A stretch of 63,683 nucleotides of DNA, from IMG/VR virus record IMGVR_UViG_3300045988_129598; one strand, written 5' to 3'. Within the stretch, counting starts at the first letter, position 1, and every line of letters begins with the position of its first letter. This document shows, piece after piece, positions 8,250-58,804 of the stretch. Source of the stretch: a virus. The notes under the pieces are model-generated. The model made no database searches and was not told the origin of the DNA. It saw only the letters and a program-made list of their open reading frames with translations. Position numbers and translations under genes: made by a program.

Positions 8250-9032
8250 TTATTCCCCCTCGGCAGATGCTATTGCAGAATCGATCAACTCATTAGTCAG
8301 GGGAACTATATCTCGATTCCGAAATTCGACGTCGAGCACCTCGTCAATATTTTCAAGACTTCCTGTGTCTCCGCGTGGGATCGTAAGCTTCAGTGCAATG
8401 CTTTTCCCCGTACCCGTTTGCTCAACTACAGCATTCGTTCCTGGTAAACCGGTTTCAACTGTGAATGTAATATTCGGAACAAAGTCATTATTGTCTAATT
8501 TTGTCTGAACTGTTTCAGCAGCAGTATTTGCCTTACTGGTCGCTGTATTGGCATTGTTGGTTGCGGTATCAGCATTTGACGCAGCAGTATTTGCTTTAGA
8601 AGTTGCTTCGTTAGCTTTGGTTGTTGCCGTATTAGCATTGCTCGTTGCAGTATCAGCATTCGACGCAGCAGTATTTGCTTTAGAAGCTGCTTCATTAGCT
8701 TTGGTCGTTGCGGTATTAGCATTCGAAGCCGCTGTATCAGCCTTGGTTGCGGCATTGTTGGCTTTCGTTGTCGCCGCATTTGCATTACTAGCTGCTGTGC
8801 CAGCTTTTGTCGCCGCATCGTTAGCCAGTTTTGCTTTGGTGTCAGCATTTGATGCAGCCGTATTTGCTTTACTGGTTACTGCATTGGCATTCGAAGCCGC
8901 TGTATCTGCTAAAGTTTTCGCATTACTGACATCCGTATAGCATTGCTCGATCGAATCGTGGATAGCATCGCGAACTTCTCGGCCATAAATAGCTGTCTTA
9001 ATTTGAGCGAGGTATTCACTGATCTTGCTCAC
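8250..9032 (-). CDS. fibre protein with Ala/Asn/Thr heptad repeats
   Basis: GTG start after GGAG. About 20 units of TAASNAN / TATTKAN / EAASKAN. N-terminus YLAQIKTAIYGREVRDAIHDSI. Confidence 0.6.
   Translation of the reverse strand: MSKISEYLAQIKTAIYGREVRDAIHDSIEQCYTDVSNAKTLADTAASNANAVTSKANTAASNADTKAKLANDAATKAGTAASNANAATTKANNAATKADTAASNANTATTKANEAASKANTAASNADTATSNANTATTKANEATSKANTAASNADTATNNANTATSKANTAAETVQTKLDNNDFVPNITFTVETGLPGTNAVVEQTGTGKSIALKLTIPRGDTGSLENIDEVLDVEFRNRDIVPLTNELIDSAIASAEGE
8500..8900 (-). repeat. 21-nt coding tandem repeats inside fibre gene
   Basis: Repeated gcagcagtatttgctttaga / gttgc(g/c)gtattagcatt units. They generate the spurious Ala-rich ORFs seen in other frames and on the other strand. 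Confidence 0.8.
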
Positions 9033-10476: not shown

Positions 10477-11655
10477 TCATCCGTCAGCTTTTGTTCCGTT
10501 TCGTGTTCCATAGACGTTCATTTTTTCCTTTGCCTGCCTATACAATTCGGGTCGATATTTGACGTATCTTTGTTCCGTAACTTCTGTTTTCTGATGCCCA
10601 AGCAGCCTGGCGATCATATCGATCGAAATGCCAGATTCACGCCACTCAGTTGCACAAGTGTCTCGGAAGTCATGCGCAGAGTATTCCTTTACATCGCACA
10701 TATCGCGAATTCGATCGAAAGCCTTCTTTGCTTCTGTATAGCTCATGGGCGTCTCCCGTTTTAAGTCTTTGTAGCTATACAGTATAAATCCGGTTTGTTC
10801 TCGTGGCGCTAACTCTGCCATGAGATTATTTGGAATTGGAATATAGCGATCATGCCCGTTCTTTGTAGACTTCACTTCCGGCAGATTTCGCTTTGGGTGT
10901 ACGACCGCCCGTCGAATGTGGATATAGTCTCGCCCTACATCGATATCTTCCCAGCGTAGTCCAAGAACTTCTTCCATTCGCATACCCGTAGAGCATAACA
11001 GCGCCGCCATGCGACGTTCTCGCACGTCCATAATGGGGATACGTTCACGGACGGCAGCGATCTTCTCCGGCGGCAAAGCCTTATGATGCACGGTCGCTTT
11101 TCCTTCAATTTTAAGTCTGGAAGAATGCAGCGGATTCCTTTCAATATATCCGTCTTCTACAGCGCTGTCAAAAGCTGGAGACATGATGTTTTTAATCTTC
11201 AAGATAGTTTCTTTCGAGTATTCTTTCGCCAGTTCATTGAACCAAAGTTGAATATCCCCTGTGCTGATTGCATCGATAGGTACATCTCCAAATTTGGGCA
11301 TGATGTGATTCTTGATCATCCGATCCCGATTGACCATCGTTGAAGAGCACTGGTTCGACTTATAAGTACGAATATATTCCTTCAGATAATCTCCGAACTT
11401 TACTGTCTTTTCTCTTCCATTTTGATTTTCCGGTTCAGAGGACTCGAACAACTTTCTGTAGTTCTCCAGCATATCTCCGATGTTTGCACCTGTTACCCAG
11501 CGTTCTTTTCCGTGGACTGTTACAAGTTGCTTCAGTCGTTTAGCCATATCATTTTCTCCTTGATCTGCGTCGAATATTCCGTTTTCAAGGAGCATAACGG
11601 TTAGCATCAGTGCCTGATATACCTCATCCATAGTGTACAGTCTAGCATTGCTCAT
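10477..11655 (-). CDS. int: tyrosine integrase
   Basis: 392 aa. Catalytic signature: R in STGMRMEEVLGLRW, HDFRDTCAT (H-x-x-R), LLGHQKTEVTEQRYVKY (H...Y). Confidence 0.9.
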   Translation of the reverse strand: MSNARLYTMDEVYQALMLTVMLLENGIFDADQGENDMAKRLKQLVTVHGKERWVTGANIGDMLENYRKLFESSEPENQNGREKTVKFGDYLKEYIRTYKSNQCSSTMVNRDRMIKNHIMPKFGDVPIDAISTGDIQLWFNELAKEYSKETILKIKNIMSPAFDSAVEDGYIERNPLHSSRLKIEGKATVHHKALPPEKIAAVRERIPIMDVRERRMAALLCSTGMRMEEVLGLRWEDIDVGRDYIHIRRAVVHPKRNLPEVKSTKNGHDRYIPIPNNLMAELAPREQTGFILYSYKDLKRETPMSYTEAKKAFDRIRDMCDVKEYSAHDFRDTCATEWRESGISIDMIARLLGHQKTEVTEQRYVKYRPELYRQAKEKMNVYGTRNGTKADG

Positions 11656-33070: not shown

Positions 33071-35881
33071 TTAAGATTTAGGTAAGTTATCGTTAAGAGC
33101 ACGAATAACAGTGCTTGCTGAGACACCTAAAAAACTGGCAATTTCATCATTTGTGTAGCCGTTTGCACTCAATCGTTTAGCTCTTGCAATTTTAGCAGCA
33201 GGCATGACCGAACTATTTCTCGGCATCGCATAGGATTTTACGACATCCATGTCTGCATTCTTTAGAATTTGGGTGAGTTTGTTGTGTGTAATTGCGCCAG
33301 CTTGAATGGCTTCCCATTCTTTTGGCGTAATCTTAATACGCGTTTTCTTTGCGCCTACTCGAAGACGCGCTTCTGTCAAAGATTGTCCTTTGATCTTCTT
33401 TACTTTATCGGCATCCTGCCTGTATTCAGGATTTGCATCCATCTTGGCTTTAAAGTTGTAATTGGCAAGAAGCTGGGCTTGACGTTCTAGTGGCGCGTTC
33501 TTTAGTGCTTCGTTGAGTTGGGCGTTAAGACTTGCTACTTCCTGAGCATAGGCTTGCTTTGCGGAGGGATTGTATTTTAAAGGCTTTACGCTCAAACTTT
33601 CTTTTCTAGCTTCATTTGCGAGTGCTTTCAATTTATTCGCATGTACTGCATACGCGCTTTCCATGACGGTTCCAGAAGATAAAGAAAAGGCGTCCTTCGT
33701 CTCGTACATCTTAGTGCTTTCGAGAGTCTTGGGCGTCTCTTTGTATATTGGTTTTCCATCTGCGTCGCGCTTGACTTCGCCAGTCTTTGTATTTTTAACT
33801 GGCTTGTTATACGTTTCTCCTGTTTCGGTGTAAAGCTTTTCGCCGGTTTCGGAATCGATGTAGATTTTCTTCTTCTTTCCGGTTTCTTTATCTTTTACAA
33901 CGATTCCGTCTTTGCGATCTGGCACTCGTTCTGTGCTACTCGCTTTTGAAAGTAATGTAGAAGCTCCCGATTTAGCTTTGCCTTGGTACTTAATCTTTAG
34001 CTCTGCGATGTCGTTATCTTTATACGACTGTTGATAATTCAGCTCGTGCTTTTTTGCATCAATAACGACCATTGAATGCCGAACAGCTCTAGCTAATTCA
34101 TCAGGAGTAGGGTTCTGAAGGCTCATATCTGTGATGAGATTGGTAATCATTCCCATCTCTCGTCCTTTTTCCTGATCTGTCATGACGTGCATTCCAGGAT
34201 ACTTAGGATAGGCTTCCTTAGGATCGAAATTTTTTAAGCCTTGCAGAGCAGGAGCGGTCTTCATTTTTCCGTCATTATTCGGAATGACCAGAACACTATC
34301 TCCATCAAAATCCGCGCCACTTAGCTTTTCTGCTGTCTTCGCGTTAATGACAACAGCGTCAATGGGATTGTTTCCTATGATCTTTCTGCCTGCACTCGAT
34401 TCGCTATTATTGACTACACATTCTGGAATCTCGAACCTTCCCGCATGTGGAAATCTGATTAAAACAACGCTCTCGCCATCATGAAAATTAGGCGCATAGA
34501 TCTCTTTTTCCGGAATGTCCGGAGATGGAAGAATGACCTGTGTTCTTTGTCTCGGTAAAGCGGCAGCCTTTAAGTGTACAGCGGCAGCATCACAATCGTC
34601 GGCAAAACTATCGAGCAACTGTTTCTTAACTGCGGGGTTCGTGGTAGCAAGAATATCTTTGAATTCTTCTGCCTTGGCATCATACGCGAGCCCAAGTTGT
34701 TTTTTAGCTAATGCGTATGTCTGTTTAGAAAGTACCTGCGACGAAAGGGATTTGCTCCATTCATTCCAGTTTCCTTCTTCATTGACAATATTAAGCGCCG
34801 ATAATTTCTCTTCTCCTGTTTTGGGATCGATATAATGCCGTTGAGCACGAACGAGCTGGTCATCCATTTTGATAGTTGCACCAAATGGATTTACCGGGTC
34901 CTTTTCCATCTTTTTGAAGACTTTTTCCGATTTATCTCTCGTTTTGTTTGTATTATAGATTATATCATAGCCATCGGGAATATCGTCTGAGTAGACAGCC
35001 ATGCCCTTCATATACTTATTTCCGTCAACAGCAATTCGAACCTGAGCATAATTAGCATTACCAAGAGAAATATCAGGCACTCCTCTGCGAAGCTCAATTA
35101 GGCCGTCTTTTTGGGCACCACCCGTTCCGTCATCATTTGTATAGTTCACATAGACTCGCTTGCTGTCAATAGAGACTGGCGGTTCAAGAGCTCTAGCTCT
35201 AGTACCATTATCCTCCATATAAAAATTTGTCGGGAGACTGATTTTTTCTTTGTTATCAACAAGTTCTTTATACCCGACATCATTTTTAGTTAGGACTTTG
35301 ATACTTGTTTTGTTATTCGTGCCCATCTGATCGACCTGAACGTATTGGATTTTATATCCTTGCTGCTCAAGTAGAGCGATGGCTGTTCGCATTCTTGTAG
35401 AGCTTACCGGCATAGCAAACTGATGCTCTGTTCCGCTGCCGACATCGATATATTTTTTCTCATCTACCGCAGCTTTAAGTTGGTCAGCCAGTGCGTTTGT
35501 CATGTTGTTCCGCTCTTTGAGATGCGGATCGAGCAATGCACGAACAGAACTTTCATTCTTACCCATGCGTTGGCCAATGGCGACATTGGAATATCCTTTT
35601 TCTTTCAACTTCCAAGCCATTGCCGATTCTTCTTTTCGGATTTCGGCTTTTGCAATGGATAGCTTGGCGCGAAGCTGACTGGTGGTCATTTCCATGCTAT
35701 CCGCGATCTGTTTCTCACTGAGTCCGTTTTTCCGCAACTTCGTAACATGCGAAACAAAGTTTCCGTTTCTCTGATAGGGATTCTCGCCAGATCCCCAAGG
35801 ATATCTTCCGCTATGTCGAGGGGTTCCGTAGTGTTCGAGCTCATCGGTTTCTTCTTGCCCAATAAGTTTTCGATCGTCCAT
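33071..35881 (-). CDS. two-barrel (YonO/RdRP-like) RNA polymerase candidate with N- and C-terminal HTH domains
   Basis: SGADFDGDSVLVIP (DFDGD codons 34298-34312) preceded by VVLIRFPHAGRFEIPECVV. Upstream YAQVRIAVDGNKYMKGMAVY (34994-35008 = KGMAV). HTH-like segments at both ends. ATG at 35881 follows GGAGGG. Confidence 0.6.
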   Translation of the reverse strand: MDDRKLIGQEETDELEHYGTPRHSGRYPWGSGENPYQRNGNFVSHVTKLRKNGLSEKQIADSMEMTTSQLRAKLSIAKAEIRKEESAMAWKLKEKGYSNVAIGQRMGKNESSVRALLDPHLKERNNMTNALADQLKAAVDEKKYIDVGSGTEHQFAMPVSSTRMRTAIALLEQQGYKIQYVQVDQMGTNNKTSIKVLTKNDVGYKELVDNKEKISLPTNFYMEDNGTRARALEPPVSIDSKRVYVNYTNDDGTGGAQKDGLIELRRGVPDISLGNANYAQVRIAVDGNKYMKGMAVYSDDIPDGYDIIYNTNKTRDKSEKVFKKMEKDPVNPFGATIKMDDQLVRAQRHYIDPKTGEEKLSALNIVNEEGNWNEWSKSLSSQVLSKQTYALAKKQLGLAYDAKAEEFKDILATTNPAVKKQLLDSFADDCDAAAVHLKAAALPRQRTQVILPSPDIPEKEIYAPNFHDGESVVLIRFPHAGRFEIPECVVNNSESSAGRKIIGNNPIDAVVINAKTAEKLSGADFDGDSVLVIPNNDGKMKTAPALQGLKNFDPKEAYPKYPGMHVMTDQEKGREMGMITNLITDMSLQNPTPDELARAVRHSMVVIDAKKHELNYQQSYKDNDIAELKIKYQGKAKSGASTLLSKASSTERVPDRKDGIVVKDKETGKKKKIYIDSETGEKLYTETGETYNKPVKNTKTGEVKRDADGKPIYKETPKTLESTKMYETKDAFSLSSGTVMESAYAVHANKLKALANEARKESLSVKPLKYNPSAKQAYAQEVASLNAQLNEALKNAPLERQAQLLANYNFKAKMDANPEYRQDADKVKKIKGQSLTEARLRVGAKKTRIKITPKEWEAIQAGAITHNKLTQILKNADMDVVKSYAMPRNSSVMPAAKIARAKRLSANGYTNDEIASFLGVSASTVIRALNDNLPKS

Positions 35882-35885
35882 AACT

Positions 35886-36533
35886 TTAACCCTCCATAAG
35901 TTGCTTCTGGACAAAATCGCTTGCGTATACGATCTGGTCCATTACTGATAGTATTCTGTCGGGCTCTGGTTGTAGAACCTGAACATCATTGTTTTGATAG
36001 ATCCGCAATTCGACTTGCGTATGCTCCGGGTGCGCATCTTCGATTTCGCCGTACTCCAAGAAGAACAGCGCAGCATATTGCTCAAGCTGCTTCATAGATA
36101 CAGGACTAAGACCTGTTTTGAGATCATGGATGCGAAGAATATCATTTTCAAACTTGATCGTATCTGCTGTTCCAAAAGCCACCGAACTGTAAGCCAGCAC
36201 AATTTCGGGGTCCATTCTTAGAGCAATGGCATCATTTACATAATTCATCAAATTCGGAAAAATATAATCGATGTCAATCGCTCGACGGGGAATCCGCTGA
36301 TCTCGAATTAAAGAAAACAACACGCCATTCTTTTCAGATTTAGTCAGCTTAATATGGGCTTGAATCCGATCCTTTGCATACAAATGGACGGCTGTTCCAA
36401 GTTCGGTTGCATAGTAGGCTTTCAGCTTGGCTGTCAGAATATCATTGAGATTATCTTTGTCTACCCAATGATAATTACTTGGGCTAATGATGGCATGTTT
36501 GCCTTCAATCGCCAAATGCTGCTTGTAATGCAC
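35886..36533 (-). CDS. PD-(D/E)xK-like nuclease (hypothetical)
   Basis: GTG at 36533 follows AGAGGAGG. The ILRIHDLKTG context resembles RecB/Cas4-type D-x-K cores. Assignment is weak. Confidence 0.45.
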   Translation of the reverse strand: MHYKQHLAIEGKHAIISPSNYHWVDKDNLNDILTAKLKAYYATELGTAVHLYAKDRIQAHIKLTKSEKNGVLFSLIRDQRIPRRAIDIDYIFPNLMNYVNDAIALRMDPEIVLAYSSVAFGTADTIKFENDILRIHDLKTGLSPVSMKQLEQYAALFFLEYGEIEDAHPEHTQVELRIYQNNDVQVLQPEPDRILSVMDQIVYASDFVQKQLMEG

Positions 36534-38189: not shown

Positions 38190-38664
38190 GCAGATATCCC
38201 TTCATGGTGTAACGATCCCCGTTGTAATTAAAGCTACCAATGCGAAGGTTAATCCGTTCAAGCCGAATAGCGTCTAGCTTACTTACCGTTTCAGCAGTCA
38301 GACGGCGACACACTTTCTTACCGTCAAGAGAGGAATAGAGCTTAATCGTCGGATCGCGACGTCCATCATCCGAAAACGATACGTTAATATTTGTCATGTA
38401 AGTCGGTTCTTCGCCTTCCTCGCGACCAGGCATAACACGGATGTTCCATCCATCAGCGCGAAGATCATCTGCCGCTTCCTTAGACAAAACTAGATTGAAT
38501 TGCGGTCTTCCAGCAAGACCGAAACGATCCGGTTCTCCCGCAAAATTCGTAAACATGATACAGGCATTCTTCACTACAACATTTGTATACGGTCTGCCTT
38601 GATACATACTATGTTCGATCTCGATTGTGCTCTCATTGACATTGTTGCCATTAAACGTTCTCAT
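38104..38664 (-). CDS. single-stranded DNA-binding protein (gp2.5/DUF2815-like)
   Basis: ATG at 38664 follows AAAGGAGAAG. Acidic C-terminal tail DDDYADYQEDDDVF ends in an aromatic residue, as in phage and bacterial SSBs. Confidence 0.55.
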   Translation of the reverse strand: MRTFNGNNVNESTIEIEHSMYQGRPYTNVVVKNACIMFTNFAGEPDRFGLAGRPQFNLVLSKEAADDLRADGWNIRVMPGREEGEEPTYMTNINVSFSDDGRRDPTIKLYSSLDGKKVCRRLTAETVSKLDAIRLERINLRIGSFNYNGDRYTMKGYLHEFQAVQRAERTTFDDDYADYQEDDDVF

Positions 38665-38911
38665 GCTTCTTCTCCTTTTCAAGCTCAAGGTACTTATTCA
38701 GATACCAGATTGCCTTTGAAATATCTTCTGTTCCGTTCTTCTTTTTATGACGGTAGAGGTACTTAAATGCATTACAGACGCAGAAACTTTGCACGGCATC
38801 GATACCCTGCGTCTCCGCCATAATATCAATGCACTCAAACTTCCCTGTCTTGTAGTGTTCGGGGTGGTTTACATGCTCTTTAGCTCGGGGCAAATCTGAA
38901 AGCTTATTCAT
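38651..38911 (-). CDS. DUF3310-like protein
   Basis: VNHPEHYKTGKFECIDIM...FCVCNAFKYLYRHKKKNG..DISKAIWYL matches the remembered DUF3310 pattern. ATG at 38911 follows GGAGGG. Confidence 0.6.
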   Translation of the reverse strand: MNKLSDLPRAKEHVNHPEHYKTGKFECIDIMAETQGIDAVQSFCVCNAFKYLYRHKKKNGTEDISKAIWYLNKYLELEKEKKHENV

Positions 38912-41900
38912 CCCTTGGCCCTCCGATGCTTTCTCCAAGGAACCATTCGATGTCACCAAATCTTGATAAGCTTGCAACTGCCTCATCGACCAGTTTTCGG
39001 TAATAGGATTCATCTACCGTGTCCTCCTTTTTCAGTTCCCGCAGAAATTCGGCTTCTCGCCATCTATAACCCTTGGTTCCCGTTACAGAATCAAACTTTT
39101 CGCCGGAATCCCTAACCAGTCTCGCACCGCCTGTTCCCGGAAGAACAGGACAGAATTGGCCACATTTACCGATGAATATCCGATTATGCTCGTCCTCTCC
39201 AAGATTCTCGTCAAAATCCAGATAGATAGCGGTCTTGACGCTCTTGGTCTGACAATAATCATTGAACACAATGGGTTCTTTCGAGAACAGGGTCTTGAAC
39301 ACATACGGTTCCGCAAACTGCTTACCGGTCGCCGTCCACTGTCCAGGCGCTTCAGGATCATCCTCAGCCAATTTAGCAATATAAACTGCATTATTGACCA
39401 AACAGATTTTCTCGAAGATGTGCTCAATCTCGAAATCGTACCCATACCGTTTACCGAAAGCGATAATCTCTTTCTGCAATTCCGGAGACGGATTAAGCAC
39501 TTTAATCGAATCGGTCTTGATATGGATAACTTCTCCGCCACGCTCATGAACATAATTCAACAGGTCGATCATGAACAACGCGCCGCGCTTGGCAACGATG
39601 TTATCGATATTGCGTGGATCGTGGAACGCATTGTCGAAGTGCGCAGCGGTCAAACCGTATACCGAATTGATCGCAATCTTGAGCGCCTGCGACAGCTGCT
39701 TAGCTTTGGCCGGGTCAGTCAAATACTTGGCCAGCTTTCCACCAAACATCTTTCCGGCCTTCTCGAAATCTTTATGTTTGATCGCGATTCGTGTATTAAG
39801 CAAGTCGTTGAATACCACGGTGTATTGGCCAAATAGATACTCGCTCGTAATACTATGCGGGTGCATACTGGCCACGTCAAATGTAATTGTTCGACCATAC
39901 ATTCCGGGTTTGGCCCATACGAATCCTCCTTCACCAGGGTCAAAGCCGCCATACGAGGATGTTGGTTTCTTCACAATATCAGGTTCTATGCTTTCAGGAT
40001 CGCGTCCATCCCAATTAAACCCTACGAGCTTATATAGTTCATGCCCTGAGCCTTTCTTGAAATCGTATCCTGGAAAATACGGAAGATCACTTTTTGCTTC
40101 GCCGAAAGGCTCCCTCATCATCTCAGAAAAGTTTGCTTTAAGAAAATCCTTTTCCGGAGAATCATCCGGCAGTTGAATAGGATCTGCCAGATTGCGATAA
40201 ACGAAAGAACTCTGAGGATTTTTAACATTTCCGAATATCAATCGGGCAGTCAGCTGATTTGTCGTGTCATTCACTGTTCCACCTGCGATATCTGCAAGGA
40301 TCTCTCTAGCCACGAAATCCGCCTGCCGAGCATTCCAAACAGCCTCCGTTGCAATAACGTCGTTGTCACAATACTCAGCAACCAACTGCCATTTGTCTTC
40401 GGGCACAGGCTGATCCCAAGGTAAGCCAAGCTCTTGATGGTGAATTCCAAGATCAATCTCGAATTTCTTCAAACTCTGCTTCGTGCTCGAAAAGTCATAG
40501 ACATCCGTGTAACTCACATTGTATGCTTGCCCAAACATCGCATTTCGATCGCCAGAAATGATTGCCTGACTGATATCATAAAGTTCTTCGATGCTCTTTC
40601 CGAGATATCTGGCATAAAGGATATGATTATCATATCGACGACAGTTAAAACCGATCAGCTTCTTTTGCATCAGTTCCCCAACATCTTGCGGACTTGGGTT
40701 AATCATCCGAACACATTTGCATTCTTTGCCCGGATACTTCCAGTTGACAAGGAAAAGATTCGGAAATACCTCGATATCAAAAAACACGAGCGGCTCTTCG
40801 GCGTAAGTGCCGGGCTCACTCGTGTCTTCACTCTTGTATTTCATTTTCATTGCAATCTTCGTGCATCGTTCGCTCTGATGCGTGCTTCCCGCAGCAAAGG
40901 CCAGGACAGCAGGTTTCATGTCGCTCACGTCGTAGGCCATCCCGCTTTCGTAAGCCTTATCGAGAATATCATTGATAAGACCAATCGAGGAAGCGGTCGA
41001 GCCTACGATTTCTTTACGAAGATGGCGGTTAATCAATCGCCTTAGTCCTTTTTCGCTTTTGACAGCTTTTTCATTGACCATTGGCTTCTCCTCTTTCAAC
41101 GGAAGTCCGCTCGTAATCGTGGCAATCGGAATATCATTGCACTTCGTTAGCCTACGTCGGCAGCTGCTCTTGCCTGTGAACACTTTGACTTCAATGTTCG
41201 GCGCATAAAGCCGTTGAAGCTGCTTCGGGTCGCCTCCCTCATAAATATAATGCAGATGAATGCCCGCTCCACCCTTACTGAACTCGGCATACGTTTTTGG
41301 CCACTTTGATGCCGCTTCGAGATTTCGCTCAACGGATTTCTCGCCTGAATCGTCTTTCAGGTCAAAGTCAATCACGATATGATTCTCAGGCAGCATGACA
41401 TAATGCAGCTTATCTGTGCAAATATCAGCCAGAGTTGTCGTCACCTTGTCCCATGCGATAAGCGGCGTGCCATCCTCAGTTGCGTATTGGGCAGGATAGT
41501 TCGCATAAATATCATCCAGCAAAGATTCGGTGCAATCGAGTTTCAGCCACGATCCTTTTTCCTTTGGCGCTTCCTCCTTGGCTTGCTCTTCCGGTCGAAA
41601 CTTCTTTCGGATAAACCCTGAATAATATTTCCGTACTTGCTTTCCATCGATACGCTCCATGTCGGCATAATGCTCGAAATAGTTCTTCAGCTCCTCTCGA
41701 AATTTGTACATCGGCAGCTTGGCTTCGGTTCCACTATCTTCGCAATATTCCTTGTACATCGCATAGGCAATTTTCAGAGTCGTGCAATCCTGCTTATCGA
41801 AGATATCATACTTATCCTCGACAAAGTTGAAGAAGAAGTCGGTCTTGTACATCATGTCCATCGGCCGATAGGCATTGTAATAGTCTTTTCCCATCTCCTT

Positions 41901-42896
41901 ATAAACTTCGAGACAATGATGTGCAATCGCTCCCAGCTCAAAATCAATCTTGCCCATCAAGTCTTGATAGCGGCTGAATGGGAGTTTTCGTCCGCTTGGC
42001 CGTACATCGATCAAACGACGGATGATACCCGATTTCGCGTCGGTAATCTTGACCGGGCGGTTCGTTGCCATGAAGAGAAAACAATTCGCTCGCGCCGTGT
42101 AAGCGGACTTGTATTTTTCATTCATGGTCATCATCTCATGAGACACGATTGAATTCAACTTGGTATTGTCTTCGATTCGACTCAGATCGCCATCATGCTG
42201 AATCGCAACAAGCGGGTTGTCTCGAAAAGCTTCTGTGGCAAACTGGTTGTTATTGCTCGCAAGAGACTTGGCATCGAAACTTACGTAATATCCCTCAAAG
42301 AGTTTCTGGATAATGTTAAGGATCGTGCTTTTGCCTGCACCCGCATCGCCATAGAAGACCAAGAATTTCTGAATCGTAACACTGTCACCCGAAACAATCG
42401 CTCCAATCGCCCATTCAATCTTTGCTCGTTCATCAGGATCATAGAGCGTTGAGACGATCTCATCAAACGCATCATAGTTTCCGGGTTCAAGCGGATAGGA
42501 TAGTGACTTCGAAATGTAATCGGTCTTCTTGATTGGCGTATTCGCAAAGGTCAGCTTGCTGTCGAGTTGATGGCTATTATCAGACAGGTTCCCCACATAG
42601 CTCTGAAATATCTTCCACGAATTTGTGGAGTAGTCCATCATCGTTCGGAGTCGTAATGTGGCCTCAGGGAATATCTTTCTGGTTTCGTCAACCTTAGCTT
42701 CGATATCCTTGTCAATAAGACGCTGCACGTCGTAACTATCCGTAGTCCATAGCCCACGCTCTTCATCCCAAATTGCGTAGAAGTCTTTACCTCGGATCAT
42801 GAGGTCTTTGCTTTTGCAGATTTTAAACTCCGGATAGATCTCGACGACGTTCTTTTCTTTCGGAACAGTACGCGTCCTAATTTGACAAAAGTCCAT
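38904..42896 (-). CDS. fused SF3 (D5/P4-like) helicase - primase-polymerase (AEP) - family B DNA polymerase
   Basis: Walker A FYGDAGAGKST. AEP motifs HIVIDFDLKD and GGAGIHLHYIY. PolB exo motifs FFDIEVFPN, NCRRYDNHIL, YCDNDVIAT. PolB pol motifs FDVASMHPHSI, KIAINSVYG, IHIKTDSI. Confidence 0.8.
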   Translation of the reverse strand: MDFCQIRTRTVPKEKNVVEIYPEFKICKSKDLMIRGKDFYAIWDEERGLWTTDSYDVQRLIDKDIEAKVDETRKIFPEATLRLRTMMDYSTNSWKIFQSYVGNLSDNSHQLDSKLTFANTPIKKTDYISKSLSYPLEPGNYDAFDEIVSTLYDPDERAKIEWAIGAIVSGDSVTIQKFLVFYGDAGAGKSTILNIIQKLFEGYYVSFDAKSLASNNNQFATEAFRDNPLVAIQHDGDLSRIEDNTKLNSIVSHEMMTMNEKYKSAYTARANCFLFMATNRPVKITDAKSGIIRRLIDVRPSGRKLPFSRYQDLMGKIDFELGAIAHHCLEVYKEMGKDYYNAYRPMDMMYKTDFFFNFVEDKYDIFDKQDCTTLKIAYAMYKEYCEDSGTEAKLPMYKFREELKNYFEHYADMERIDGKQVRKYYSGFIRKKFRPEEQAKEEAPKEKGSWLKLDCTESLLDDIYANYPAQYATEDGTPLIAWDKVTTTLADICTDKLHYVMLPENHIVIDFDLKDDSGEKSVERNLEAASKWPKTYAEFSKGGAGIHLHYIYEGGDPKQLQRLYAPNIEVKVFTGKSSCRRRLTKCNDIPIATITSGLPLKEEKPMVNEKAVKSEKGLRRLINRHLRKEIVGSTASSIGLINDILDKAYESGMAYDVSDMKPAVLAFAAGSTHQSERCTKIAMKMKYKSEDTSEPGTYAEEPLVFFDIEVFPNLFLVNWKYPGKECKCVRMINPSPQDVGELMQKKLIGFNCRRYDNHILYARYLGKSIEELYDISQAIISGDRNAMFGQAYNVSYTDVYDFSSTKQSLKKFEIDLGIHHQELGLPWDQPVPEDKWQLVAEYCDNDVIATEAVWNARQADFVAREILADIAGGTVNDTTNQLTARLIFGNVKNPQSSFVYRNLADPIQLPDDSPEKDFLKANFSEMMREPFGEAKSDLPYFPGYDFKKGSGHELYKLVGFNWDGRDPESIEPDIVKKPTSSYGGFDPGEGGFVWAKPGMYGRTITFDVASMHPHSITSEYLFGQYTVVFNDLLNTRIAIKHKDFEKAGKMFGGKLAKYLTDPAKAKQLSQALKIAINSVYGLTAAHFDNAFHDPRNIDNIVAKRGALFMIDLLNYVHERGGEVIHIKTDSIKVLNPSPELQKEIIAFGKRYGYDFEIEHIFEKICLVNNAVYIAKLAEDDPEAPGQWTATGKQFAEPYVFKTLFSKEPIVFNDYCQTKSVKTAIYLDFDENLGEDEHNRIFIGKCGQFCPVLPGTGGARLVRDSGEKFDSVTGTKGYRWREAEFLRELKKEDTVDESYYRKLVDEAVASLSRFGDIEWFLGESIGGPRDE

Positions 42897-42934
42897 GCCG
42901 TAACCTCCTTTCTCGGCTCACTCTTTTGTGATTA

Positions 42935-43240
42935 GCGTTGTGACAGTTGTGCAGTTTTTTACACAGTTTATAAACTTTTATATAAAAACACTATTCCCCA
43001 AAAAACTTTTTAGTAGTAAAAAACTGTAAAACTGTAACAGACCCCTATTTTTTCTAATAATATCTAGAAAAATGCTGTTACAGTTTTGGATTTTTGGGCT
43101 TTCAAAACTGTCACACTGTTACAGTTTTCTGTAACACTTTTTCTCTTTTCCGTTAAGATTTCTTAATGCGAACAGCAAAATTTTTTCAAAGCATCGAAAA
43201 CGCATTTCAAAACTGTCACAACTGTTACAGTTTTGCTGAA
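42935..43240. repeat. iteron array with AT-rich spacer: putative replication origin / operator cluster
   Basis: At least 8 copies of AAAACTGT(A/C)ACA in both orientations, including palindromic pairs at 43103-43137 and 43208-43236. AT-rich stretch at 42963-43020. No ORF. Confidence 0.6.
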
Positions 43241-43247
43241 GAAAATA

Positions 43248-56662: not shown

Positions 56663-58804
56663 TTATAAGTGCATCACCCGATCTCTAATTTCAGCCGTTC
56701 GTCCCTGATTCCAGAACTGTGTACCGATATAACCACAGGTTCGTCTGGCGACATTCATCGTTTTCTGATCTCTGTTGCCGCACTTCGGGCACTCCCAAAT
56801 CAATTTTCCATCCTCCTCTACAATCTGGATTTCGCCATCGTACCCGCATTTCTGGCAATAGTCTGATTTCGTGTTAATTTCAGCATACATGATATGGTCA
56901 TACATATACTGAATCAGTCGAATAACAGCCTGAACATTTCCAATCAGATTTGGAACTTCGACATAGCTGATGGCCCCGCCCGGACTCATTTTCTGGAACC
57001 GACTTTCGAAATCAAGCTTTGTAAAAGCGTCAATCGGCTCGCGTACATTAACGTGATACGAATTGGTAATATAAGTGTGGTCGGTTACTTCTTTAATAAT
57101 GCCAAATCGTTTGCGCAAGCACTTAGCGAATTTGTACGTCGTGGACTCAAGCGGGGTTCCATACACACTATAGTCGATATGCTCCGCTTCGCGCCACTCC
57201 TTACATTTATCGTTCAATCGCCTCATGACAGCAATCGCAAATGATTCACCTCTGGGCTCAGTATGGCTAACATGCATGAAAGCCTGGCAACATTCGTACA
57301 ATCCTGCATATCCGAGCGAAATTGTCGAATATCCATTATAAAGAAGTTTGTCGATTGTTTCGCCATGCTTTAGTCTGGCCAGAGCACCGTGCTGCCAAAG
57401 GATCGGAGCAACATCAGACACTGTTCCCTTCAACCGCTCATGCCTGCATCGCAAAGCACGATGACAGAGCTCAAGTCGTTCGTCAAGGACGGTGAAGAAA
57501 TCTCTTTCTTCTTTAATAGCAGTGAGCGCAACATCTGGAAGATTGATCGTAACGACGCCTTGGTTGAAACGCCCATAGTATTTCGGCTTTCCGTTCTCAT
57601 CCTTATAAGGCGTGAGGAAGCTTCGGCAACCCATACACGGATAGCAGTCACCCTTCAGTTCCAGCATCAATTTCTCGGAAATATAATCTGGAACCATTCG
57701 TTTAGCCGTGCACTTGGCTGCCAATTTCGTCAGATAGAAATACGGAGAATCTTCATGGATGTTGTCTTCTTCAGTTACATAAAGAAGCTTCGGAAATGCA
57801 GGAGTGATCCAAACGCCGGACTCGTTCTTTACTCCCTGAATACGCTGATTCAGCATCTCCTCGATAAGCATAGCGAGGTCCTCTTTTTCTCGTGGATTCT
57901 CAGCTTCATTCAGATACATCATGACCGACAGGAAAGGTGCCTGCCCATTCGTTGTCATCAATGTAATGACTTGGTACTGAATAGTCTGAATACCCTTCTG
58001 AATTTCTTTTCGGAGACGACGTTCCACGATATTATCGATATACAACTCACCACCCGGAATGTCATAGTCGAGCATCTCCTGCATAACTTCTTTACGAATC
58101 GCCTGTCTCGAAACATCCACGAACGGTGCAAGGTGTGCAAGGCTGATCGTCTGACCGCCGTACTGACTTGAGGCTACCTGTGCGACGATCTGCATGGCAA
58201 TGTTGCAGGCTGTGGAGAAGCTATGTGGCTTATCGATCTTCACGCCGCTGATAACCGTCCCGTTTTGCAGCATATCCTTGAGATTCACGAGACAGCAGTT
58301 GTGCATATGCTGAGCAAAGTAGTCCTTGTCATGCACATGGATAATGCCCTGTCTATCCGCCTCCACAATGTCCTGAGGCAGAAAATATCTTTCTGTCAGA
58401 TCTTTAGAGACGTATCCGGCCATATAGTCTCTCTGAACACTGTTGATGACCGGATCTTTGTTGCTGTTTTCCTGAAGCGCTTCTTCGTTTGCCTGATCGA
58501 TCAACGACAGAATCTCAGCATCCGTGCTGTTTCCTTTACGGATTTTCTCTCGATCATAGCGATAACGAATATAATCTCTAGCTACGGTCGCATAGCCGTT
58601 TTCCATCAAGGCATCTTCAACCATGTCTTGAATTTCTTCGACATGGGGCGCTCGACCAAGCAACGCGCATTGATCCCCTACACTGTCTGTAATCTTGGCA
58701 ATATTATCGAATGGTATTCTGTCTTTGCCCGCCCGAGTAATTGCTCCAGCGATCTTTGTTGCGTCGAACTCGACTTCAGTTCCGTTTCGTTTGATGACTT
58801 TCAT
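56663..58804 (-). CDS. nrdD: anaerobic ribonucleoside-triphosphate reductase
   Basis: ATP-cone start MKVIKRNGTEVEFD. C-terminal Zn site CQKCG...CPKCG and glycyl-radical motif RRTCGYIG. 713 aa. Confidence 0.95.
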   Translation of the reverse strand: MKVIKRNGTEVEFDATKIAGAITRAGKDRIPFDNIAKITDSVGDQCALLGRAPHVEEIQDMVEDALMENGYATVARDYIRYRYDREKIRKGNSTDAEILSLIDQANEEALQENSNKDPVINSVQRDYMAGYVSKDLTERYFLPQDIVEADRQGIIHVHDKDYFAQHMHNCCLVNLKDMLQNGTVISGVKIDKPHSFSTACNIAMQIVAQVASSQYGGQTISLAHLAPFVDVSRQAIRKEVMQEMLDYDIPGGELYIDNIVERRLRKEIQKGIQTIQYQVITLMTTNGQAPFLSVMMYLNEAENPREKEDLAMLIEEMLNQRIQGVKNESGVWITPAFPKLLYVTEEDNIHEDSPYFYLTKLAAKCTAKRMVPDYISEKLMLELKGDCYPCMGCRSFLTPYKDENGKPKYYGRFNQGVVTINLPDVALTAIKEERDFFTVLDERLELCHRALRCRHERLKGTVSDVAPILWQHGALARLKHGETIDKLLYNGYSTISLGYAGLYECCQAFMHVSHTEPRGESFAIAVMRRLNDKCKEWREAEHIDYSVYGTPLESTTYKFAKCLRKRFGIIKEVTDHTYITNSYHVNVREPIDAFTKLDFESRFQKMSPGGAISYVEVPNLIGNVQAVIRLIQYMYDHIMYAEINTKSDYCQKCGYDGEIQIVEEDGKLIWECPKCGNRDQKTMNVARRTCGYIGTQFWNQGRTAEIRDRVMHL

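Follow-up and report, generated by a model that had tools for sequence, protein, structure and literature searches.

An uninterrupted 1330-amino-acid reading frame of a human-gut phage very probably encodes an ortholog of the replicase GP55 of Lactococcus phage 1706

Does a phage protein in which helicase, primase and DNA polymerase follow one another in a single chain represent a new kind of replicase, a member of a known family, or several genes joined by mistake? The question is raised by the viral DNA IMGVR_UViG_3300045988_129598 of IMG/VR (63,683 nucleotides; the window means this whole stretch), whose minus strand carries between 38904 and 42896 an open reading frame (ORF) of 1330 amino acids (aa). 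A first-pass annotation, made from the letters alone, had read this ORF as a one-protein minimal replisome fusing a superfamily 3 (SF3) helicase, an archaeo-eukaryotic primase (AEP) and a DNA polymerase of family B (PolB) in an atypical order, next to an iteron-type origin. Here we have followed up this reading by searches of domains, structures and homologs, and we consider it very probable that its product is orthologous to the four-in-one replicase of Lactococcus phage 1706, GP55.

The ORF listing of the window confirmed one ORF without interruption, and all the motif strings quoted for it were located in the claimed order from the N- to the C-terminus. The PHROG family phrog_4210 matches aa 1-1322 of the protein at 1894 bits. 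The modules follow each other, N- to C-terminal, as SF3 helicase, AEP core, four-helix domain and family-B polymerase with exonuclease, and are located as follows:

38904..42896, minus strand: whole replicase ORF, 1330 aa plus stop, ATG start (ORF listing, phrog_4210 match, collinear with phage 1706 GP55)
42417..42896, minus strand: N-terminal region ahead of the ATPase core, aa 1-160 (part aligns with the pre-helicase region of PDB 7ola)
41847..42416, minus strand: SF3 (D5/P4-type) helicase ATPase core, aa 161-350 (sequence matches in Pfam, NCBIfam and PDB)
41583..41840, minus strand: D5-type C-terminal region, aa 353-438 (Pox_D5; candidate winged-helix role taken from PMC4889955)
41067..41564, minus strand: predicted PriS-like AEP primase core, aa 445-610 (AEP fold match, invariant residues, D512 aligned with GP55 D509)
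40857..41066, minus strand: predicted alpha-helix domain (aHD), aa 611-680 (secondary structure of the model, conserved Y655 and F667)
38907..40829, minus strand: family-B DNA polymerase with 3'-5' exonuclease, aa 690-1330 (model, Foldseek, NCBIfam and profile match)

An ORF of this kind could be an artefact, adjacent genes having been joined through an assembly or sequencing error, and its occurrence elsewhere bears directly on this explanation. Among deposited phage genomes 389 records were matched by tblastn, 252 of them covering at least 80% of the protein; the hosts of the matched phages are Arthrobacter, Gordonia, Streptomyces, Curtobacterium, Rhodococcus, Bifidobacterium, Lactococcus and Faecalibacterium, human-gut siphoviruses are found among them too, and the homologs have been annotated as 'DNA primase/polymerase' or 'helicase/polymerase'. 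A metagenomic protein search gave at least 8000 candidates; all 120 best listed, from which lengths and coverage were taken, measure 1244-1368 aa with at least 93% query coverage. Other samples yielded full-length proteins 96% identical (1332 aa) and 88% identical (1330 aa) to that of the window, and the unannotated GenBank record MT837191 holds a protein fragment 99.3% identical over aa 1-756. The survey of split against fused relatives that the first-pass annotation had proposed was run with the primase plus alpha-helix fragment, which found 420 clusters (50% identity) among 1.84 billion representatives. Among the best 150 of the 420 clusters the fused helicase-primase-polymerase order was present in every representative of at least 1150 aa (111/111), and those shorter than 1150 aa are collinear truncations; the order was scored by phmmer with three fragments of the window protein, used instead of a strict regular-expression census of the domains that had recovered just 23 of the 111. 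Split forms exist as well, for example in Bifidobacterium phage BitterVaud1, Enterococcus phage AUEF3 and Lactococcus phage P087. We found no support for a joining artefact, and the split in the BitterVaud1 relative is a genuine one; against an artefact stand the same uninterrupted architecture in independent isolates and metagenomes, the 96% and 88% identical proteins from other samples and the expression of the orthologous GP55 as one active polypeptide (PMC12205980). Because of the number of independent full-length copies the misassembly of 38904-42896 was rejected, and we regard an artefact as next to impossible.

The helicase-primase-polymerase fusion is already known. It was catalogued in 2016 by Kazlauskas, Krupovic and Venclovas (Nucleic Acids Res; PMC4889955), in whose list GP55 figures as an SF3 helicase-AEP-PolB fusion. 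The four activities were shown in 2025 by Zhang, Lu, Zhu and Huang (Nucleic Acids Res; PMC12205980), who purified GP55 (1317 aa) and named it a 'four-in-one replicase'. According to the latter report, the DNA polymerase activity is lost in D949A and the 3'-5' exonuclease in D712A/E714A, the helicase runs on UTP/dTTP and K189A abolishes unwinding, and the RNA primase, which prefers GTP initiation at 5'-CCAAC-3', is lost in D509A. Priming by GP55 needs a new alpha-helix domain, and mutations of Y655 and F667 abolish primer synthesis. GP55 is mainly a dimer whose dimerisation is mediated by the helicase, its de novo DNA synthesis has been shown in vitro, and more than 1000 homologs, mostly from human-associated phages, have been counted (PMC12205980).

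The window protein and GP55 are collinear over almost their entire lengths: BLASTP aligned aa 20-1315 with 22-1298 of GP55 at 818 bits and 37% identity, and a pairwise MAFFT alignment gave 39% identity with all experimentally essential residues aligned. K189, D510/D512, Y655, F667, D707/E709 and D1007 of the window protein correspond to K189, D507/D509, Y655, F667, D712/E714 and D949 of GP55. The folds and families of the modules, the collinearity with GP55 and the conservation of the residues essential in GP55 are direct observations on the window protein. By homology, its N-terminal SF3 helicase would unwind the DNA and displace the strand, the AEP core with the following alpha-helix domain would lay down short RNA primers, and the C-terminal PolB would extend the primers and proofread by its 3'-5' exonuclease.

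Searches of domains and structures support each of the three modules, helicase, AEP and PolB, that had been proposed within one polypeptide. The helicase core contains the Walker A motif GDAGAGKST (aa 183-191, including K189), and the strings IQHDGD, FMATN and IIRRL (aa 291-295) were read off its sequence; the Walker A lysine, Walker B, sensor 1 and arginine finger of an SF3 helicase are all present and in N-terminal position. Pfam DUF5906 matches aa 181-294 (E 5.9e-14) and Pox_D5 aa 353-438 (23.0 bits, cut-off 21.4), NCBIfam TIGR01613 (P4-family primase C-terminal) gives E 1.3e-14, which is below its own cut-off, and a PDB sequence search matched the DNA primase 7ola to aa 41-440 (E 1.7e-11). 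No family was found for aa 1-160 in the Pfam search; within this part, aa 41-139 align with residues 382-480 of 7ola, the pre-helicase region of that primase-helicase. P4 alpha and other members of the D5 family bind the origin by a C-terminal winged helix (PMC4889955), and by analogy aa 353-438 may be the counterpart of this element.

Pfam gave nothing significant on the isolated primase and polymerase fragments, hence structure prediction was needed for both. The AlphaFold2 model of aa 445-680 has a mean pLDDT of 91.5, and its ten best Foldseek matches in PDB are AEP primase-polymerases only (NrS-1 N300 and pRN1 ORF904, E 1e-4 to 1.3e-3), the match that follows them having E 0.4. Among viral predicted structures Foldseek gave 50 matches at E of at most 1e-3, the named ones being mostly primase, Prim-Pol or helicase. 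The primase motifs are HIVIDFDL (aa 506-513) and GGAGIHLHY (aa 542-550), and the core carries D510-x-D512, SKGGAGIH547 and I-E569-V-K571. In an alignment with 41 full-length homologs (42 sequences) D510, D512, S540, G545, H547, E569 and K571 are invariant.

The AEP-like domain could still be an inactive structural linker, with priming carried out by another protein or by a protein-primed PolB. The region aa 445-680 is silent in Pfam even at E of at most 10, membership in Prim-Pol (PF09250) included, and an hhalign comparison of the family alignment with the Prim-Pol of the Efquatrovirus AUEF3 returned a probability of 0.2, that is, no relationship. Moreover, the position of AEP motif C, usually an aspartate, is held by the invariant glutamate E569. 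Against these points the metal-binding DxD and SxxGxGxH are invariant throughout the 42 sequences, the predicted fold agrees with that of active primase-polymerases, and the best structural matches of the polymerase module are primer-dependent PolBs and not phi29-type enzymes. The D509A mutant of GP55 is primase-deficient, and the primase region of GP55 alone makes RNA primers (PMC12205980). Taken as a whole, the evidence makes an inactive linker very improbable. In the predicted structure the kinship of the primase core to PF09250 Prim-Pol is visible at the level of the fold only.

The three-module list of the first-pass annotation proved incomplete, as it overlooked a four-helix domain at about aa 611-684, of the kind required for priming by GP55 (PMC12205980). 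Both models place its helices (approximately 615-626, 634-650, 658-669 and 675-684) between the primase core and the polymerase, and the two residues critical for primer synthesis in GP55 align at identical positions, Y655 and F667, in the window protein.

The polymerase module was modelled as aa 660-1330 (mean pLDDT 88.1) and gave 274 Foldseek matches in PDB at E of at most 1e-3. All of the 50 best listed belong to family B or are engineered derivatives of its polymerases, including 9N, KOD, Pol alpha and the African swine fever virus (ASFV) enzyme; phi29-type polymerases do not occur among the listed structural matches, which are archaeal PolB, Pol alpha and ASFV. The exonuclease motifs are Exo I FFDIEVFPN (705-713, with D707/E709), Exo II FNCRRYDNHIL (750-760) and Exo III YCDNDVIAT (842-850), and the polymerase motifs are A FDVASMHPHSI (1006-1016, with D1007), B KIAINSVYG (1073-1081) and C IHIKTDSI (1124-1131). 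Support from sequence comparison is weaker, with NCBIfam DNA polymerase II matched at 7e-8 and E. coli Pol II matched by the family profile at 7e-6; in the PDB this profile of the 42 sequences also reached Pol alpha, and neither an AEP nor the 7ola helicase. Between exonuclease and palm the protein has extra segments (aa ~905-975, window 39972-40184, minus strand), absent in GP55 and most relatives, of which aa 951-975 are predicted to be disordered (pLDDT below 50).

Several points weigh against the assignment of the ORF as a GP55-type replicase. Pfam Prim-Pol and DNA_pol_B both stayed below significance, the isolated polymerase fragment having no significant Pfam match, and the primase assignment therefore rests on structure prediction and motif conservation. 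Polymerase motif C reads KTDS (aa 1127-1130, window 39507-39518, minus strand) where DTDS is canonical, K1127 taking the place of the first aspartate in the alignment with E. coli Pol II. All four residues are invariant in the 42 sequences, and GP55, which is active, likewise has KTDS. The four activities of the window protein are, finally, inferred from GP55, to which the biochemistry belongs, and the same applies to its likely nucleotide preference, priming-site preference and dimeric state; at an identity of only 37-39% the two proteins may diverge in nucleotide preference, in the site of primer recognition and in oligomeric state.

How unusual is the protein, then? Of the order and the fusion, which had both been called atypical, the order is indeed uncommon among phages generally: where primase and helicase are fused, the primase comes first in 94% of cases (PMC4889955). 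The fusion is no peculiarity of this sequence and marks a family that is very widespread, described and biochemically characterised. The protein is ordinary because it belongs to this replicase family, described in 2016 and assayed in 2025; it is one more member, from a human-gut phage, and makes no conceptual addition. Its value lies in annotation: what Pfam pipelines label only 'DUF5906' would be the complete replicase of the phage. The term 'one-protein minimal replisome' is backed by the orthology to GP55 (PMC12205980) and goes too far in view of the conserved neighbours, an ssDNA-binding/annealing protein, a phrog_62 helicase, a nuclease and an exonuclease.

Outside the ORF lies the only part of this locus that may be new. 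The gap of 350 bp upstream of the replicase ORF (42897-43247) is occupied by an array of repeats, of which counterparts were found upstream of the replicase gene in related gut-phage contigs, here given by their contig numbers:

42939..43233, no strand assigned: array of repeated TGTNACA boxes (extended form AAACTGTNACA), present in either orientation (motif counts), candidate origin or operator
3665-3958 of contig L004: array upstream of the replicase gene
2147-2402 of contig L007: array upstream of the replicase gene
2273-2470 of contig L008: array upstream of the replicase gene
2299-2490 of contig L010: array upstream of the replicase gene

The 10-mer AACTGTNACA occurs 8 times in the gap, in both orientations, against 0.30 copies expected, and has no copy elsewhere in the window; with one mismatch allowed, 11 of the 12 window matches of the 11-mer fall inside the array region. 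The palindromic core TGTNACA is found 8 times in the 400 bp upstream of the gene, about 100 times the density elsewhere (0.19 per kb), and the array encloses the 80-bp stretch with the highest AT content of the window (0.787; mean 0.544). The hallmark of iteron-type origins, multiple repeats adjoining an AT-rich element, is present here as 8 to 11 boxes in 300 bp. In L004, whose replicase is 81% identical, the boxes stand at identical positions with a varying central base, and in L007, L008 and L010 (~60% identity) 6 to 9 boxes of the variant AAAAGTGTAACA precede the replicase genes. The array is hence present in 4 of the 5 related gut-phage contigs examined, and is absent upstream of the replicase gene in the fifth (L009), in Faecalibacterium phage FP_oengus, in phage 1706 and in three actinophages, the last having essentially no gap at this place. 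Because of this distribution over L004, L007, L008 and L010 on the one hand and L009, FP_oengus and phage 1706 on the other, we take the array to be real and conserved in one clade.

What the array does can be read in two ways. It may be the replication origin of the phage, with the boxes bound by the replicase, possibly by means of its D5-type C-terminal region, and the AT-rich tract between them melting first. The density of the boxes, their position around the AT maximum, their recurrence in four relatives with positions kept in L004 despite the changes of the central base, and the winged-helix binding of origin DNA by D5-family helicases, including P4 alpha (PMC4889955), all point this way. 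On the other hand, the array, and often any gap, is missing from the box-less relatives, and the divergence of the helicase C-terminal region does not follow the presence of boxes: in L009 this region is 56% identical, as in the relatives that carry them, a result that does not bear on what binds the boxes. The GC skew declines monotonically along the window, without any sign of an origin, and a dimeric helix-turn-helix regulator at an inter-module promoter would just as typically have a palindromic 7-mer for its operator. We hold an origin to be possible, with a likelihood clearly short of even.

The alternative, to which we give the same weight as to the origin, is transcriptional control, in which a phage regulator would bind the boxes as operators of the replication module's promoter. 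Between the upstream block of small ORFs and the replication module there is a single large noncoding gap, and the array lies in it; its boxes are palindromic and often paired, and it is restricted to one lineage, as regulators and operators often are. Yet a scan of the gap for sigma-70 promoters and terminators found nothing convincing on the coding strand and a sole hairpin formed by the boxes themselves, 8-11 sites per 300 bp are many for an operator, and no cognate regulator was found, the upstream ORFs matching no informative family. Judged by its architecture the array resembles an iteron origin, and an operator or promoter region is equally possible. As to the adjacent iteron-type origin claimed at first, the repeat array stands as real and statistically strong, while its origin function would be a further step, and neither phage 1706 nor FP_oengus nor the actinophages have it.

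If the array is an origin, the replicase of one gut-phage clade might also be its own origin-recognition protein, binding the array and melting the AT-rich tract. We put this forward as a rather unlikely proposal; were it true, one polypeptide would perform initiation in addition to unwinding, priming, synthesis and proofreading. In the sections consulted, the GP55 study (PMC12205980) does not discuss an origin, and that of a GP55-type phage has apparently never been defined. The array offers a concrete candidate for the replication origin of these phages and might be used as DNA on which the loading of a GP55-type enzyme is studied.

The replicase gene lies in a replication module common to the window and phage 1706, which encodes a DUF3310-like protein, an ssDNA-binding/annealing protein, a helicase with a match to phrog_62 (a DNA-helicase family of PHROGs), an endonuclease and an exonuclease. 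If its first ATG is taken as the start, the DUF3310-like ORF (38651-39013, minus strand; labelled 'nucleotide kinase' by PHROGs) shares 110 nt with the 3' end of the replicase gene; its true start is probably an internal codon, because the homolog in L004 has only 85 aa and overlaps by 4 nt. Further off, at 33071-35914 (minus strand), a 947-aa ORF encodes an RdRP-like RNA polymerase, which matches phrog_4291 'RNA-dependent RNA polymerase' end to end and has helix-turn-helix matches at both ends. An RdRP-like gene is present in phage 1706 as well, and this polymerase, putatively a YonO-like phage RNA polymerase, has been described as the signature gene of this phage supergroup (bioRxiv 10.1101/842583).

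The rest of the window is of siphovirus type, with terminase, portal, tape measure protein, integrase, anaerobic ribonucleotide reductase, and a protein that matches a head-maturation protease family and, more weakly, a major-head one. The tyrosine-type integrase (phrog_1, 3e-60) is encoded at 10477-11655 (minus strand) and suggests a temperate lifestyle; the NrdD-like reductase (phrog_487, 7e-205; 56663-58804, minus strand) fits an anaerobic gut host. In the tail-gene region, the ORF at 8250-9032 (minus strand, 260 aa) contains at 8518-8750 tandem repeats that keep the frame, with 21-, 63- and 84-nt periods and at most 90% matching.

Set beside known systems, the protein shares a homologous helicase core and D5-type C-terminal region with P4 alpha, poxvirus D5 and the 7ola primase-helicase. 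In these the primase is N-terminal and there is no polymerase, whereas in the window protein the primase motifs (aa 506-572) follow the helicase (aa 161-440) and a PolB comes next, so that the P4 alpha/D5 architecture does not apply. NrS-1 N300 and pRN1 ORF904 are the closest solved structures to the predicted primase core; there a single active site primes and synthesises DNA, aided by a helix-bundle domain, while the window protein has a separate PolB. The alpha-helix domain of GP55 type is unrelated to that helix bundle (PMC12205980).

Stand-alone PolBs of Enterococcus Efquatrovirus, Lactococcus P087-like and Listeria phages match only aa 693-1158, at ~24% identity. In AUEF3 (Efquatrovirus) and Lactococcus phage P087 the polymerase is a separate gene, and AUEF3 has in addition a separate 247-aa Prim-Pol plus PriCT-1 protein of an ordinary Pfam family with no detectable sequence kinship to the window primase. 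The replicase of BitterVaud1 (contig L011, 301-4931) is a homolog of the fused type that has been split, just before polymerase motif A, into parts of 960 aa and 368 aa by a 213-aa ORF, for which a Pfam scan was empty. Near this cut, at about aa 890-915 of the window protein, several shorter metagenomic representatives (928-1020 aa) also stop inside the polymerase.

Homologs over the full length, 45-53% identical, come from phages of the actinobacteria Arthrobacter, Gordonia and Streptomyces, where they are called 'DNA primase/polymerase', and from FP_oengus, where the name is 'helicase/polymerase'; they belong to the same phage supergroup (bioRxiv 10.1101/842583). Their hosts are different, Faecalibacterium being the host of the nearest cultured relative, and their replicase genes start 12 to 30 bases after the upstream gene. 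GP55 of Lactococcus phage 1706 (Fremauxvirus), with 1317 against 1330 aa, lacks the polymerase segments seen at aa ~905-975, and its gene is preceded by neither a noncoding gap nor a TGTNACA array; the two proteins have the same four domains in the same order.

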